Below, piece by piece: positions 1 to 4,294 of a stretch of DNA of 4,294 nt. Each line of letters starts with the position of its first letter. Position 1 is the stretch's first letter. Origin of the DNA: a virus (taxonomy: Duplodnaviria; Heunggongvirae; Uroviricota; Caudoviricetes); the IMG/VR virus record IMGVR_UViG_2703719366_000022; one strand, written 5' to 3'. The notes beneath the pieces were generated by a model. That model was not told the origin of the DNA. It ran no database searches and saw nothing but the letters and a program-made list of their open reading frames with translations. The position numbers and the translations under genes were made by a program.

Positions 1-513
1 GATATAACGGTTTACCCACACCCCAGCGTGCCGAATCCTGGCTGGCCCCCGTGTCCGCACTGAATGTCCCCTCAGCGCCCTGGGTGAATGCAGAACCACC
101 ACGACAGCATGGTACCAGCANNNNNNNNNNNNNNNNNCATCATGCAGGCAGTGGTCGGCCGGAATGATGTCGTTATACGTACAACTCTCTCCACCCGGAG
201 TTACCGTGCTGCGGCGCGCCAGCTGTTTAATGCGCGGATCCGGAGCATCGTAAGAATCCGGTAACGGAAGCCCTTCACCGTAGGCCATGCCGTTGGACTG
301 TCCGGCAAGCACAACCACGTAGAACCAGTCCGGCTTAGATGAAGGGCCGACCTGTGGATCTCCTTCAATAGCCACCGCCTGCATCAGTGTGTACGGCGTA
401 ATGGCAACCGGTCCGCCGTATGGCTGCCAGCCCTCTTTCAGTTTGTGTGTCAGCTTTTCCGCAAGGTCTGACGGCGACGCCGCCCTGACAACATCATAGT
501 GTTTAAATGCCAT
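1..513 (-). CDS. NanS-p-like prophage esterase (DUF1737-type N-terminus followed by SGNH/GDSL-like hydrolase region with GQSNG motif); 5' portion only, continues beyond window start
   Basis: Minus-strand ATG at 513..511 with GGAGG Shine-Dalgarno 4 nt upstream. Translation begins MAFKHYDVVRAASPSDLAEKLTHKLKEGWQPYGGPVAITPYTLMQAVAIEGDPQVGPSSKPDWFYVVVLAGQSNGMAYGEGLP...; the reading frame remains open to position 1 on the far side of the N-run. The N-terminus matches my recollection of the DUF1737 domain of Stx-phage NanS-p sialate O-acetylesterases, and GQSNG is a typical SGNH catalytic-serine block. Absent from the supplied ORF track, probably because of the N-run. Confidence 0.7.
   Translation of the reverse strand, partial: MAFKHYDVVRAASPSDLAEKLTHKLKEGWQPYGGPVAITPYTLMQAVAIEGDPQVGPSSKPDWFYVVVLAGQSNGMAYGEGLPLPDSYDAPDPRIKQLARRSTVTPGGESCTYNDIIPADHCLHDXXXXXXCWYHAVVVVLHSPRALRGHSVRTRGPARIRHAGVWVNRYI
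121..137. other. Run of 17 N (assembly gap or masked bases) inside the esterase CDS
   Basis: Literal n characters at 121-137; frame continuity across the gap cannot be verified. Confidence 0.95.
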
Positions 514-706
514 GAATCCTCCCGGCCGGGATAATATTGTGAGTAAAATGAGGAGCGGGCTGAAGTCCGGAAGTTACAGGACAATGGCAGAAGAGAGACA
601 ACAGCCCGCAATACGAAAAAGGCCGCGCTATTGCGCAGAGTGATTACTGTCGGATATTATTCGCCAGCTGAAATATTACTTCACGTTTTGTTGTTTATTC
701 CTTGCC

Positions 707-735
707 GCCCGCGTCTCCCTGCGCGGGCTTTTTTT
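707..735 (+). terminator. Rho-independent terminator, plus-strand orientation
   Basis: GCCCGCG (707-713) / CGCGGGC (722-728) 7-bp GC-rich stem, 8-nt loop, followed by seven T (729-735). No T-tract on the opposite strand, so the orientation is plus, opposite to all genes in the window. Confidence 0.55.
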
Positions 736-737
736 GT

Positions 738-766
738 CCATAAGAAAGCCCCTCCGGAGAGGGGCT
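738..766 (-). terminator. Candidate weak intrinsic terminator or structural hairpin
   Basis: Perfect 8-bp stem AGCCCCTC / GAGGGGCT (747-754 / 759-766) with CGGA loop; on the minus strand it is followed by TTCTTATGG, an imperfect U-tract. Confidence 0.3.
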
Positions 767-962
767 GGAGAGTGGCGCTATGTGCCATTGCATGGTGCCG
801 GGTGCCTCCCGGTGAATTCAGTACCAGCACCTGAATCCGCGATTATCCCATATACCTACTCGCTGATTGCCCCTCCGCACAGGGGGATTCACCATGCCAG
901 TTTCTTTTAACAAACTCCCCGCAAACCAGACAACAGTCAACCGCCTGAATTGTGAGACATTT

Positions 963-988
963 AAAAAAAAGGCCCGCAAAAGCGAGCC
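963..988 (-). terminator. Rho-independent terminator closing the tRNA cluster
   Basis: Minus strand reads GGCTCGC-TTTT-GCGGGCC (7-bp stem with one G-U pair) followed by eight T; lies about 15 nt past the 3' CCA of the last tRNA. Confidence 0.6.
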
Positions 989-1002
989 AGGGAAAATAAG
1001 TG

Positions 1003-1079
1003 TGGCGCGTTGTACTGGATTCGAACCAGTGACCGATTGCTTAGAAGGCAATTGCTCTGTCCGGCTGAGCTAACAACGC
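1003..1079 (-). tRNA. argO: tRNA-Arg (anticodon UCU), 77 nt, CCA encoded
   Basis: Hand-folded cloverleaf: acceptor GCGTTGT/ACAACGC, D-stem GCTC/GAGC, anticodon stem ATTGC/GCAAT with loop CTTCTAA, T-arm ACTGG-TTCGAAT-CCAGT, discriminator G, 3' CCA. Fully canonical. Gene symbol is by analogy with the ileZ-argN-argO order I recall for Stx phages. Confidence 0.85.
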
Positions 1080-1092
1080 AGGATACAGATAA

Positions 1093-1169
1093 TGGACCGC
1101 CTTCGGGGACCCGAACTCCGCGCAACCAGCTTCGAAAGCTGGCGCTCTTTCCTGATGAGCTAATGGCGG
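1093..1169 (-). tRNA. argN: tRNA-Arg-like (anticodon UCG) with non-canonical features; possibly degenerate
   Basis: Hand fold: acceptor CCGCCAT/AAGGCGG (one A/A mismatch), D-stem GCTC/GAGC, anticodon stem CCAGC/GCTGG with loop TTTCGAA, T-arm CGGAG-TTCGGGT-CCCCG (one A/C mismatch, G rather than A at position 58), discriminator U, CCA encoded. Gene symbol by positional analogy only. Confidence 0.5.
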
Positions 1170-1176
1170 TATGTGA

Positions 1177-1252
1177 TGGTGGCCCTTGCTGGATTTGAAC
1201 CAGCGACCTGGCGATTATGAGTCGCTCGCTCTCACCACTGAGCTAAAGGGCT
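1177..1252 (-). tRNA. ileZ: tRNA-Ile2 / Met-type (anticodon CAU), 76 nt, CCA encoded
   Basis: Hand fold: acceptor AGCCCTT/AAGGGCC (A1 opposite C72), D-stem GCTC/GAGC, anticodon loop CTCATAA, T-arm GCTGG-TTCAAAT-CCAGC, discriminator A. Closely resembles the E. coli ileX sequence as I recall it (lysidine-modified, AUA-reading). Confidence 0.8.
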
Positions 1253-1262
1253 GGGTCAAAAA

Positions 1263-1291
1263 ATAATAATCAGATGAAAATCAATAATCAA
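1263..1291 (-). promoter_or_regulatory. Candidate sigma70 promoter for the tRNA cluster
   Basis: Minus strand: -35 TTGATT (plus 1286-1291), 17-bp spacer, -10 TATTAT (plus 1263-1268), ending about 11 nt upstream of the tRNA-Ile 5' end. Overlaps the 3' end of the AraC CDS. Confidence 0.35.
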
Positions 1292-1994
1292 GCCCTTGCC
1301 TGGATACATATCTGTCTGGCGGGAAGCCATAATAGCGGTGAAATACAGAAATAAAGTAGGACCAGCTTGAATAACCGCATTTTTCTGCTACAGCCTGTCC
1401 ATATCCATGCCGGGAACATAACATATTGACAGCAACACGCATCCGCTCTTCCAGCAACAAGCGACTGAACATGTGCCCTTCATTTTTCAGTTTTATCTTT
1501 AACAAACTCTCACTCATATGCAGGCGTAACGCAATCGCACCAAGCGTCCAGCTTGCTGATATATCTGTCTGAATTATCGCCCTGACTTTGGCACTTATAC
1601 TGGATAAACATCCACTTAAAAATAATAATATCCGTTCATCTGATTCAAACAGCGACAGGCATGCCATCATAAGAAACATATCCGTGGTATCTCCGGAAAA
1701 TCTCTGGCTGGTAATTAAAGCCTCAGCCAACGCAGGGTTGTTGGGTTCCAGTGACAGATAAAGCGGAACGTCAGTCAGATGAGTTCTTGTCAGCTTATGC
1801 TGAATTTCCAGATATTGACTTACTATGGAATGGTTTATATCGAAAATTTTAACTTTGCCATAATGCATAAGGAAAAGCGCCCTGATGCATTTGGTGGCCA
1901 GAACGACTGAGCCGGGCTTAAGTGACAACGTATCCTTTTCAAGAAAAATATTAATTGGGGAGCAAACCATGATAACTGAACAGACAACAACCAT
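1281..1994 (-). CDS. AraC/XylS-family transcriptional regulator, AppY/GadX/YdeO-like (237 aa)
   Basis: ORF-track protein; C-terminal AraC-type double HTH (...WTLGAIALRLHMSESLLKIKLKNEGHMFSRLLLEERMRVAVNMLCSRHGYGQAVAEKCGYSSWSYFISVFHRYYGFPPDRY). N-terminus MVVVCSVIMVC and C-terminus align with the AppY sequence as I recall it (MDYVCSVVFIC... / [24 protein letters not shown]). AT-rich gene; no clear Shine-Dalgarno, alternative start at 1970. Confidence 0.85.
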   Translation of the reverse strand: MVVVCSVIMVCSPINIFLEKDTLSLKPGSVVLATKCIRALFLMHYGKVKIFDINHSIVSQYLEIQHKLTRTHLTDVPLYLSLEPNNPALAEALITSQRFSGDTTDMFLMMACLSLFESDERILLFLSGCLSSISAKVRAIIQTDISASWTLGAIALRLHMSESLLKIKLKNEGHMFSRLLLEERMRVAVNMLCSRHGYGQAVAEKCGYSSWSYFISVFHRYYGFPPDRYVSRQGLDY

Positions 1995-2029
1995 TATAAT
2001 TTTACTTTCATTAGCAATTGGTTAGTTCA

Positions 2030-2060
2030 ATTATAGCCCCAAAAGGTAAATTATCATCAA
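2030..2060 (-). promoter_or_regulatory. Candidate sigma70 promoter for the AraC-like gene
   Basis: Minus strand: perfect -10 TATAAT (plus 2030-2035) with -35 TTGATG (plus 2055-2060) at a long 19-bp spacer (18 bp if TGATGA is used); about 35 nt upstream of the ATG at 1994. Confidence 0.35.
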
Positions 2061-2088
2061 CACATAAGCAAAGGACTGACAGGTGCCG

Positions 2089-2328
2089 CTAACACCCACC
2101 AGCCGCCCATTTACCACAAATAAAAAAGCCTTCAGGACTGAAGGCGTCTGTAACAACCGAACTGATAGTCTGCCAGACCCGCATAACCAGCTGGGTCAGT
2201 ATTAACTGGCAGCGCTCGCGTGAAAGGTACGTATTCTGCGCAATCTCCCCGACCGTCGCCGGTTCGGTGACGCTTAATTCATCAAACACAACTCTGGCGG
2301 TTTCTGTCATATCCTGCTGTTTCAGCAT
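2089..2328 (-). CDS. Hypothetical small protein (79 aa), doubtful
   Basis: ORF-track entry with normal GC and non-repetitive composition; a possible HTH-like stretch (TVGEIAQNTYLSRERCQLILTQLV). No convincing Shine-Dalgarno, and an intrinsic terminator sits inside its last ~20 codons, so it may not be a real gene as drawn. Confidence 0.3.
   Translation of the reverse strand: MLKQQDMTETARVVFDELSVTEPATVGEIAQNTYLSRERCQLILTQLVMRVWQTISSVVTDAFSPEGFFICGKWAAGGC
2122..2145 (-). terminator. Rho-independent terminator
   Basis: Minus strand reads GCCTTCAGTCCTGAAGGC (6-8 bp stem) followed by TTTTTTATTT; the T-tract ends about 30 nt before the stop codon of the 79-aa ORF. Confidence 0.6.
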
Positions 2329-2451: not shown

Positions 2452-2473
2452 AAAAAACCCGCTCAGAGGCGGG
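2452..2473 (-). terminator. Rho-independent terminator downstream of the CPBP gene
   Basis: Minus strand reads CCCGC-CTCTGA-GCGGG (5-bp GC stem, 6-nt loop) followed by six T; about 140 nt past the CPBP stop codon. Confidence 0.6.
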
Positions 2474-2520
2474 GTCAAGCTATGCGGCGAAATAACCACT
2501 CTTAACAGCATACCTGATTT

Positions 2521-2534
2521 TTTACGTACGTAAA
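2521..2534. repeat. Perfect 14-bp palindrome TTTACGTACGTAAA in the CPBP 3' intergenic region
   Basis: Read directly; the sequence equals its own reverse complement. A second short inverted repeat TGCAT-N7-ATGCA lies nearby at 2545-2561. Confidence 0.3.
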
Positions 2535-2614
2535 TGCTTTGCCGTGCATATTTTTCATGCAAATGTCACGTCCTGCTATTTTTCAGTCTTATAAATTTAA
2601 AACCATAGAAAAAA

Positions 2615-3433
2615 TCAATTATGTTTTAAAAATGGATAGGTAAAGAATAACAAGTGACACAGATTCAAACCAAAATGGAAAAGGGTGGCAACCCACAAAC
2701 GCCCACTCCACATCCATGACAATCCATACACAACACCAGATAACGTGGCAAATAATACAAGTAAAGCACCACCTGAATAGTGATAAAAACCAAACAACAA
2801 AGCCGCCACAATTAATGCAACCAATGGAGACGTTACTTCTGATAGCCGTGATTGAATATACCCTCTAAATAATGATTCCTCTGCCAGAGACACAAAAAAC
2901 AAATTAGCCAATATAAACTCTGGCAACCACTCAGGAAAATGAATCTCTGGCTTTAATCCACCAAAAAAAACAGCCAAAAACAGGATAAGAGGAACAGAGA
3001 GCGACAGAGCCCCCCACTTCCACAAAGACACTTCTGATTTTACTTCTTTTTTAAACAAAGAAGATGTACACAGGACTAACAAAAATGGCACCAGCGCTTT
3101 ATCAAAATTAAAATACATTGTATAGGGAGTACTTTGAGGGCCAACAGTAACAGAATTTAGCACTACAGGATTGTGAAACCCTGGCCATAGATGGAAAAAT
3201 AATGCTATGGCTGATAAAACTATGCCAACTTCATATATAGATTTAGCCCAGGCGTTATATTTCCAGTTGAACTTCAAAATAATAAAAAAAACGATTGTAG
3301 CAACAAAAAATAACACCGACCAATCAATAATATCATTAAGCACAGCCAGGACAACAGACACCGTCAACAATGAAAAAGCCACTACCTTATGCCAACTGAG
3401 AGTTGACAGTGACAGTACTAACACAATCCACAT
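2615..3433 (-). CDS. CPBP-family (CAAX protease / Abi, PF02517-like) intramembrane metalloprotease homolog, ~272 aa, about 8-9 predicted TM helices
   Basis: ORF-track frame. I place the start at ATG 3433..3431, because AAGGAG lies 5 nt upstream; the track's first codon at 3439 is GTG. All three CPBP signature motifs are present in order within hydrophobic segments: EExxxR (AEESLFRG), FxxxH (FGFYHY), HxxxN (HFGLN). Sampled 60-nt stretches are about 30-38% G+C by hand count, against about 58% in rusA. Confidence 0.85.
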   Translation of the reverse strand: MWIVLVLSLSTLSWHKVVAFSLLTVSVVLAVLNDIIDWSVLFFVATIVFFIILKFNWKYNAWAKSIYEVGIVLSAIALFFHLWPGFHNPVVLNSVTVGPQSTPYTMYFNFDKALVPFLLVLCTSSLFKKEVKSEVSLWKWGALSLSVPLILFLAVFFGGLKPEIHFPEWLPEFILANLFFVSLAEESLFRGYIQSRLSEVTSPLVALIVAALLFGFYHYSGGALLVLFATLSGVVYGLSWMWSGRLWVATLFHFGLNLCHLLFFTYPFLKHN

Positions 3434-3584: not shown

Positions 3585-3956
3585 CTACCGCATATCCATA
3601 TCTAACCGGACATTCAGAGCCATAAGCATTCCTTCAATAATACCTTCCGCTTTATAAAGCCTTTTACCAATAAGCCCATCAGAACATCTATGCTTACGTG
3701 CAAGAGCCATAAATGTCATTCCACCTACGTAATAATCCACCAACAAATCGTGCAAATACTGATTATTCTTGTTTAATCGTGCCATACAACCACAAATTAT
3801 CATGGCGTCATCATCAGAACACTTAGGACGTGATTTCACTTTAGTCGGGATTAATCCTTTAAAACCAGCAGCTATCGAGGGCCATGTTACATCTTCATGA
3901 TTATTTGCTGCCCATGCCCCCCATCGCTCAAGAACCATCTGGATATCACGCGCCAT
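3585..3956 (-). CDS. Q: Phage late-gene antiterminator Q, short (~125 aa) phage-82 / DLP12 QuuD-like type
   Basis: Protein [123 protein letters not shown] closely matches my recollection of E. coli QuuD. I place the start at ATG 3956..3954 (GAGG 8 nt upstream) rather than the track's GTG at 3965. The ATG overlaps the rusA TGA stop, and the rusA-Q order is canonical for lambdoid phages. Confidence 0.8.
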
Positions 3957-4294
3957 CGTTACCACCTCTGATTTCGTAAATCTTCACGCCCAGCCGTCCA
4001 CCTGGCACAGGCTGACCGCGCACAATATTGATTTCATCAAACTGCTCGTCATCAATGAGCACTTCCGCATGCGTCAGCGCATCCAGCGGTGCTTTCAGAA
4101 TGTTGTCCAGGTCACGGCGGCGCTTATCCGGTGGTTCTGCAATAATTTTTATTGCCAGCCGTCCGGACAGGCTTAATTTCAGCCGCTGCTGGCGAACAAT
4201 AAGCGCCACAGCCCGGCGATAACGCTCACCGGCTTTTGATACAAAATATGTGCTGCCACGACGTCGCCAGTAGGTGTTCACCGTCGGCGGGTAA
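3946..4294 (-). CDS. rusA: RusA-family Holliday junction resolvase, 5'-truncated by the window edge
   Basis: Translation ...[36 protein letters not shown]...[62 protein letters not shown] contains the conserved RusA acidic block (RRRDLDN) and aligns with the RusA sequence as I recall it. The frame is open to the window end; the track's M at 4281 is an internal GTG. Confidence 0.85.

Follow-up and report, generated by a model that had tools for sequence, protein, structure and literature searches.

The tRNA-to-esterase interval of the stx-negative prophage Sp4 as a convergent small RNA module common to Shiga toxin phages

The ileZ-argN-argO tRNA cluster is present in many, though not all, phages that carry the Shiga toxin (Stx) genes, and read-through by RNA polymerase modified by the antiterminator Q is well established for lambdoid late operons. 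It has been reported that convergent small RNAs (sRNAs) bound by Hfq are located between moron genes and a conserved phage open reading frame (ORF), with prophage Sp4 listed among the carriers (Tree et al. 2014, PMC4104026), and convergent sRNA dyads have been described in at least eight prophages of the Sakai strain (PMC7873438). For the NanS-p esterases, a three-domain build has been described, and nanS-p genes were already noted in non-Stx prophages (PMC10462455). The DNA analyzed here, a stretch of 4,294 nucleotides (hereafter the window; IMG/VR record IMGVR_UViG_2703719366_000022, Caudoviricetes), very probably represents the Q-to-esterase segment of Sp4, in which the 489-bp gap between the tRNA genes and the esterase gene (positions 514-1002) is a convergent Hfq-sRNA module common to Stx phages, and the place of stx is an uninterrupted point junction at approximately 959-967. 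All elements of the locus are already in the literature, including the existence, position, and family of both RNAs.

Outside a masked run of N, the window is 100% identical to genes ECs1083-ECs1088 of Sp4 in Escherichia coli O157:H7 Sakai (window position = 1180671 - Sakai position), a lambdoid prophage that has been studied well, lacks stx, and is defective, with insertions of IS629 in the lysis region. At least 80% of the window is covered in 542 of the 5,426 complete E. coli genomes searched, and because of this coverage and the identity to Sp4 the gene layout is not a chance pattern. All genes are encoded by the minus strand, and coordinates fall along the phage late direction, in which the order is RusA, Q, three cargo genes, tRNA-Ile2/Arg/Arg, the 489-bp interval, and a NanS-p-like esterase; downstream of the window, IS629 insertions and pchA are annotated in Sp4. 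An initial annotation, made from the sequence alone, had recognized the succession of Q, Ile/Arg/Arg tRNAs, and esterase, and all of these elements were recovered by Pfam, ARAGORN, and existing annotation. Its description of the locus as an stx-negative relative of Stx phages was also borne out by collinear flanks and by alignments to VT2-Sakai, ASU11, and other phages, in which neither stx homology nor an stx remnant could be found in the window.

On the other hand, the initial annotation took the 489-bp interval for an empty toxin-cargo site, which does not hold because the interval is present in Stx phages alongside stx. In the Stx2 phage ASU11, window 406-959 is collinear with the stretch between the esterase start and a point just past stx2B, and 962-1255 corresponds to the tRNAs, with a 1,332-bp stx2AB cassette between the two matching parts. 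VT2-Sakai aligns in blocks 416-638 and 789-959, the middle being replaced by the sRNA AsxR, and nothing in the window corresponds to positions 6904-8235 of its compared stretch, 1,332 bp that consist of stx2A and stx2B with a 50-nt leader and a 41-nt tail. In the Stx1 prophage Sp15, window 406-897 is collinear with the segment downstream of stx1B, and the stx1B-to-esterase interval is 98-100% identical to window 514-799. The location of stx between the tRNAs and the esterase, which the initial annotation had given for Stx phages, was indeed observed in ASU11, VT2-Sakai, and the Stx2k phage phiSTEC1575-Stx2k. Judging from these alignments, the interval is a conserved module that is found between stxB and nanS-p in Stx phages as well. 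The proposed search for remnants of stx flanks in Stx1 and Stx2 phages returned the interval itself as collinear sequence, without an stx remnant. Collinearity with non-Stx lambdoid phages, which had been offered as grounds for rejecting the idea, does not discriminate, since Stx phages and non-Stx phages alike have sequence collinear with the interval.

The site that is vacant in Sp4 is instead a point junction, located between the T-run of the post-tRNA terminator and the 5' end of an STnc100-type RNA. The alignments with ASU11, VT2-Sakai, and the Stx2k phage break at 959/962, that with mEp460 at 967/991, and that with PhiR5_1 at 967/968. By using window 880-1040 as a junction probe against the 5,426 complete genomes and a phage collection, the junction was found to be uninterrupted in 1,020 genomes, including that of the uropathogenic E. 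coli UTI89, and partial matches stopped at 962-967. In the phage collection, 10 records had an uninterrupted junction, none of which is named as Stx-converting and of which Nil3 is 100% identical, whereas in the Stx phages the two halves of the probe match apart. In E. coli, the joint without a toxin cassette is the common state, and this one joint is filled alternatively by stx or, as in mEp460, by other DNA. In mEp460 (mEp460_ev081), a 642-bp insert with two small annotated ORFs lies exactly at the stx joint; in the same phage, the 3' end of the STnc100-type RNA has been lost to unrelated sequence.

It might be argued that Sp4 derives from an Stx phage whose toxin cassette was removed by precise deletion or recombination, the site then being a scar and not a never-filled joint. 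Both flanks are common to Stx phages, and phiSTEC1575-Stx2k carries the same psrA-like gene, TrmB-like gene, and tRNAs (91%) with stx2k at exactly the Sp4 junction site; however, the right-hand module starts with TTTTTAAAT...TCACAATTCAG in the window, in PhiR5_1 (which has no tRNAs or stx there), and in mEp460 (which has other cargo) alike. Recombination with Stx phages has occurred, as indicated by the identity of 514-799 to the co-resident Sp15, but the absence of an stx remnant from the window and the uninterrupted joint in 1,020 complete genomes, non-Stx-producing strains included, make such a loss improbable. The sRNA module is itself a mosaic, in which 514-799 corresponds to Sp15 and 800-926 is 100% identical to mEp460, with 88% identity over 927-960. 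The junction region is ordinary lambdoid mosaicism, and no deletion scar was seen in it. A recombination breakpoint was also noted inside the sRNA gene, within its conserved CACCGGGAGGCACCCGGCACCATGCA block.

With regard to the content of the interval, the minus strand matches the Rfam family RF02076 (STnc100) with 138 bits against a gathering score of 47, over the full model (positions 1-206; window 736-926). In VT2-Sakai, a member of this family with a score of 208 bits lies just downstream of stx2B, with the convergent AsxR next to it; ASU11, the Stx2k phage, and Nil3 have the family as well. This RNA is EcOnc05, for which a peak in Hfq cross-linking and analysis of cDNA (Hfq-CRAC) at window 757-865 (-) and a northern band of ~222 nt have been reported (Tree et al. 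2014, PMC4104026, Table S2); the published northern probe exactly matches window 834-868. The conserved block, which begins at TCACAATTCAG within a few bases of the joint, has a length from TCACAATTC to the terminator of 218 nt for Sp4 and 233 nt for Sp5, and the corresponding northern sizes are ~222 and ~235/247 nt. On the basis of these sizes and of conservation, the 5' end of EcOnc05 is likely to be at ~956-958, and the right edge of the stx cassette would therefore be the start of EcOnc05. RNAalifold of five homologues (Sp4, Sp15, Sp5, ASU11, and PhiR5_1, a small and related sample) gave 57 pairs, 9 of them with both sides changed, including two in the GGAUUCAG/CUGAAUUC hairpin. In the shared fold, three hairpins are closed off by the long-range helix GCAUGGUG/CACCAUGC, with the terminator after it. 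The related pasD has been described upstream of a sialate esterase gene, and EcOnc05 is placed likewise. Among the relatives, fimZ and espA transcripts increase when EcOnc27/sRNA103 is overexpressed, and PasD has many partners by RIL-seq, in which interacting RNAs are ligated and sequenced.

On the plus strand, Hfq peaks have been reported for EcOnc21 at 570-655 (+) and for EcOnc08 at 661-733 (+) (Tree et al. 2014, PMC4104026, Table S2), and the two share one northern probe and one band of ~271 nt (Tree et al. 2014, PMC4104026). This 'EcOnc08/21/42' probe exactly matches window 627-661 and is common with Sp15. A band of ~271 nt probably puts the start of EcOnc08/21 at ~465, antisense to the ribosome-binding site, start, and first codons of the esterase gene. 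A short, AsxR-like form of EcOnc08 of ~69 nt (667-735), starting from the promoter-like element at 631-660, was considered and is unsupported, as the probe on this element detects the ~271-nt RNA. Membership of EcOnc08/21 in the AsxR and AgvB families (RF02703 and RF02702) was likewise rejected: no match was found in 500-1010 at E up to 10, and the same scan gave AsxR 88 bits in VT2-Sakai. The analogy in position is retained. A further observation is that 11 nt of EcOnc08 (TTACTTCACGT; 676-686, +) are identical to positions 40-50 of Spot 42, with a shuffle frequency of 0.0095. The Spot 42 query was checked against genomes and is 100% correct; the comparison was made post hoc among several sRNAs, and the likeness is a weak lead that may be due to chance. 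It is doubtful, but conceivable, that EcOnc08/21 is a regulator distinct from AsxR/AgvB, which would restrain the esterase start region in cis as an antisense RNA, and with it the passage into the late lysis genes, and would act in trans via its 5' region (UUACUUCACGU, common with Spot 42), and that, separately, the outer edge of the dyad (T-run and TTAAAT) would be a recurrent exchange joint for stx1, stx2, and other cargo.

The initial annotation described the interval as having no credible ORF and only terminator hairpins. The first part stands, as only short, unconserved ORFs of 58-77 amino acids are present, and four terminator-like hairpins are indeed found, at 971-988 (-), 747-766 (-), 707-728 (+), and 623-638 (-); the word "only" has to be given up, because hairpins among them end two convergent sRNA genes. 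There is hardly any probability left for a non-functional spacer with terminators, which these hairpins and the lack of a credible ORF had suggested, in view of the Rfam score, the published Hfq cross-linking and northern bands at exact coordinates, the compensatory base changes in the fold, and blocks conserved at 98-100% across mosaic phages. Coding for small proteins is no less remote: besides the ORFs mentioned, a 'hypothetical protein' (partial) is annotated in RefSeq at ~782-907 (+), and two 38-amino-acid ORFs are in the ASU11 record for the homologous stretch, but RefSeq marks its own ORF as incomplete, homologues differ by indels of 4 to ~20 bases, and the conserved columns track RNA helices rather than a reading frame.

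Several points weigh against the interpretation of the interval as a dyad of sRNA genes that is read through in the late phase. By consensus scan, no convincing -35/-10 promoter could be found for EcOnc05; a TTAAAT/TGTAAT element is located 7-8 nt upstream of the conserved TCACAATTC in all homologues, without a conserved -35, and EcOnc05 may be processed from read-through transcripts rather than transcribed from its own promoter. The whole-RNA fold energies are not clearly better than those of shuffled sequences (z = -1.6) and were not used as evidence, and we infer the 5' ends of both EcOnc05 and EcOnc08/21 from northern sizes and conservation. Moreover, terminator read-through is an assumption for Sp4, which is defective and has IS629 in its lysis region.

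A possible mode of action can be proposed. The terminators of the dyad face each other at 707-766, that of EcOnc05 on the minus strand and that of EcOnc08/21 on the plus strand, and late transcription, running leftward, would meet the post-tRNA terminator, the EcOnc05 terminator, and a third hairpin ahead of the esterase gene. In the lysogen, these terminators would keep the tRNAs and the two sRNAs apart as units of their own, and the sRNAs would most likely be Hfq-dependent base-pairing regulators of host and prophage transcripts. Upon induction, as expected from lambdoid biology, Q-modified RNA polymerase would read through all three terminators into the esterase and lysis genes.

The esterase gene is interrupted in the window by a run of 17 N (121-137), which hides 126 bp of coding sequence found in identical genomes and accounts for an apparent frame break in the fragment. 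Read from an identical genome, the full-length protein has 616 amino acids with DUF1737, SASA, and DUF6645 domains, all above the Pfam cut-offs, and it is 54% identical to orf42 of VT2-Sakai, which adjoins stx2, from end to end (645 aligned positions, E = 0). The NanS-p-like nature of ECs1088, for which the initial annotation had suggested such a protein comparison, is thus supported by its predicted domain build and by full-length similarity. A small hairpin in the esterase leader (UCCCGGCCGGGAGG; ~518-531, -) includes a GGAGG ribosome-binding site; its fold (z = -1.5) is not significant alone and was not used as evidence. As for the tRNA cluster, the gene with the CAU anticodon was called Met by ARAGORN, is tRNA-Ile in RefSeq, and is named ileZ1 in the Sakai record. 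The terminator that follows the cluster has a fold of -13.8 kcal/mol (z = -4.5 versus shuffles).

The suggestion that cargo has accumulated upstream of the tRNAs was correct with respect to a CPBP protease gene, a TrmB-like pseudogene, and psrA, but not in the sense of a replacement for stx, because phiSTEC1575-Stx2k carries both. No Pfam match was obtained for ECs1086; the TrmB-like ORF is unbroken (222 nt) in the Stx2k phage, in contrast to the frameshifted label of ECs1086 in RefSeq. ECs1087 of Sp4 has been named psrA, a prophage-encoded regulator of type III secretion that works via gadE (PMC13502914). Its annotated start varies by record, and the gene accordingly measures 714 nt in the RefSeq annotation of strain TR01 but 588 nt in that of Sakai. 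The block at 2452-2535, with the pattern TTTACG...TAAGAGTGGTTA...hairpin and T-run, is a candidate late-promoter region on sequence grounds. In Sp4 it is located ~1 kb downstream of Q, past the CPBP protease gene, which appears to have been inserted between Q and the likely target promoter of Q. For this block, no Hfq-bound RNA is present in the table of Tree et al. at Sakai 11781xx-11783xx. Phage vB_EcoS-640R1 has a Q different from the Sp4 type and is uninformative on what adjoins the latter.

Taken together, toxin and non-toxin phages have a conserved regulatory-RNA module in the non-coding DNA that separates the tRNAs from nanS-p, and this DNA is no empty slot for a toxin. The locus belongs to the prophage sRNA dyads by which the physiology of enterohaemorrhagic E. 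coli is tuned. When genomes are scanned, a 'moron' site without an ORF should be searched for RNA families. The coordinates of all features are listed in Table 1.

Table 1. Features of the 4,294-nt window, ordered by position.
Feature	Coordinates	Strand	Evidence or remark
5' part of ECs1088, NanS-p-like sialate O-acetylesterase (DUF1737 and start of SASA)	1..513	-	Pfam, annotation; runs off the window
5' leader of esterase gene	514..622	-	90-98% identical in Sp15, Sp5, ASU11, and PhiR5_1; adjoining segments diverge
EcOnc21 and EcOnc08, Hfq-binding RNA convergent with EcOnc05	570..735	+	Hfq peaks, northern; terminator 707-728 and T7
Terminator-like hairpin, then CCTTTTTCGT	623..638	- (late direction), upstream of esterase	kept in all aligned homologues
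Promoter-like element TTGCGC-18-TATTAT (putative)	631..660	+	aligns with sequence upstream of the AsxR 5' end in Sp5
EcOnc05, STnc100/PasD-family sRNA	736..958	-	Rfam 736-926, Hfq peak, northern, conservation; terminator 747-766
Module junction, site of stx cassettes or other cargo in relatives	959..967		alignment breakpoints; uninterrupted here
Intrinsic terminator 3' of tRNA cluster	963..988	-	stem 971-988, then T8 at 963-970
argO1 (tRNA-Arg UCU)	1003..1079	-	ARAGORN; Sakai record
argN1 (tRNA-Arg UCG)	1093..1169	-	ARAGORN; Sakai record
ileZ1 (tRNA-Ile2, anticodon CAU)	1177..1252	-	ARAGORN, RefSeq, Sakai record
psrA (ECs1087), AraC-type regulator, prophage cargo	1281..1994	-	Pfam HTH_18 and HTH_AraC
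ECs1086, TrmB-like small ORF	2089..2328	-	annotation; RefSeq marks it as frameshifted
Block homologous to sequence directly 3' of Q in VT2-Sakai, Nil3, ASU11, and PhiR5_1	2452..2535	-	sequence comparison; ends in hairpin and T6 at 2458-2473
ECs1085, CPBP/CAAX-type membrane protease (cargo)	2615..3433	-	Pfam Rce1-like, E = 1e-19; annotation
Q antiterminator (ECs1084)	3585..3956 (or to 3965)	-	Pfam Phage_antitermQ, E = 9e-52
RusA resolvase (ECs1083)	3946..4294	-	Pfam, RefSeq/Sakai annotation; cut by window end

Compared with the late region of Stx-converting phages in general, the window has Q, the tRNA cluster, and the esterase, but neither stxA nor stxB. The Stx2a prophage Sp5/VT2-Sakai (933W type) has the order Q, ileZ-argN-argO, stx2AB, EcOnc27 and AsxR, and nanS-p, in which the gene order is that of the window. 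The tRNA clusters are 93% identical (window 1003-1252), and the same post-tRNA terminator is kept in VT2-Sakai, just ahead of the stx2 cassette. Both also have an STnc100-type sRNA and then a convergent short sRNA, an esterase leader (514-622) with 95% identity, and the same esterase domain architecture. In contrast, the window lacks the 1,332-bp stx2AB cassette, has a different type of Q, and contains the extra CPBP protease gene, TrmB-like gene, and psrA between Q and the tRNAs; its convergent sRNA is of the EcOnc08 type, not AsxR (43% identity over 661-735). The Q of Sp4 is 48% identical to that of ASU11. The Stx1 prophage Sp15 of Sakai has Q, stx1AB, EcOnc13 and EcOnc42, and the esterase, and its likeness over 514-799 extends from the esterase leader through the EcOnc08/42 RNA and the two facing terminators into the 3' part of the STnc100-type RNA. 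It differs in having stx1AB, in lacking the tRNA cluster, and in the 5' half of its STnc100-type RNA, which is 56-73% identical. In phiSTEC1575-Stx2k, the same AraC-type gene, TrmB-like gene, and tRNAs as in the window (91% identity) are followed directly by stx2k.

Among the stx-negative phages, the lambdoid Nil3 matches window 560-1002 with 100% identity and has the sRNA module directly next to the tRNAs, but its Q and tR' are directly upstream of the tRNAs, without CPBP or psrA cargo. PhiR5_1 has neither tRNAs nor psrA, and 73 bp stand in for window 968-2091, and PhiR49_2 and the UTI89 prophage have the same joint as the window. At the level of the RNAs, EcOnc08/21 resembles AsxR/AgvB in place and orientation, being antisense to the late operon and convergent on an STnc100-type RNA, in the aligned promoter-like element, and in an end of ...UUGCC, a GC-rich hairpin, and a U-run, but it lacks the ~42-nt 3' region that defines AgvB, AsxR, and EcOnc03 and is ~271 nt long versus 51-60 nt. 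EcOnc05 shares with the RF02076 (STnc100/PasD) family the full-length match and the same helix closing three hairpins and a terminator. Its central variable region is shorter than the model and is not the same as in the Sp5, Sp15, and Salmonella copies, and because this region differs, any seed and target set may differ as well.

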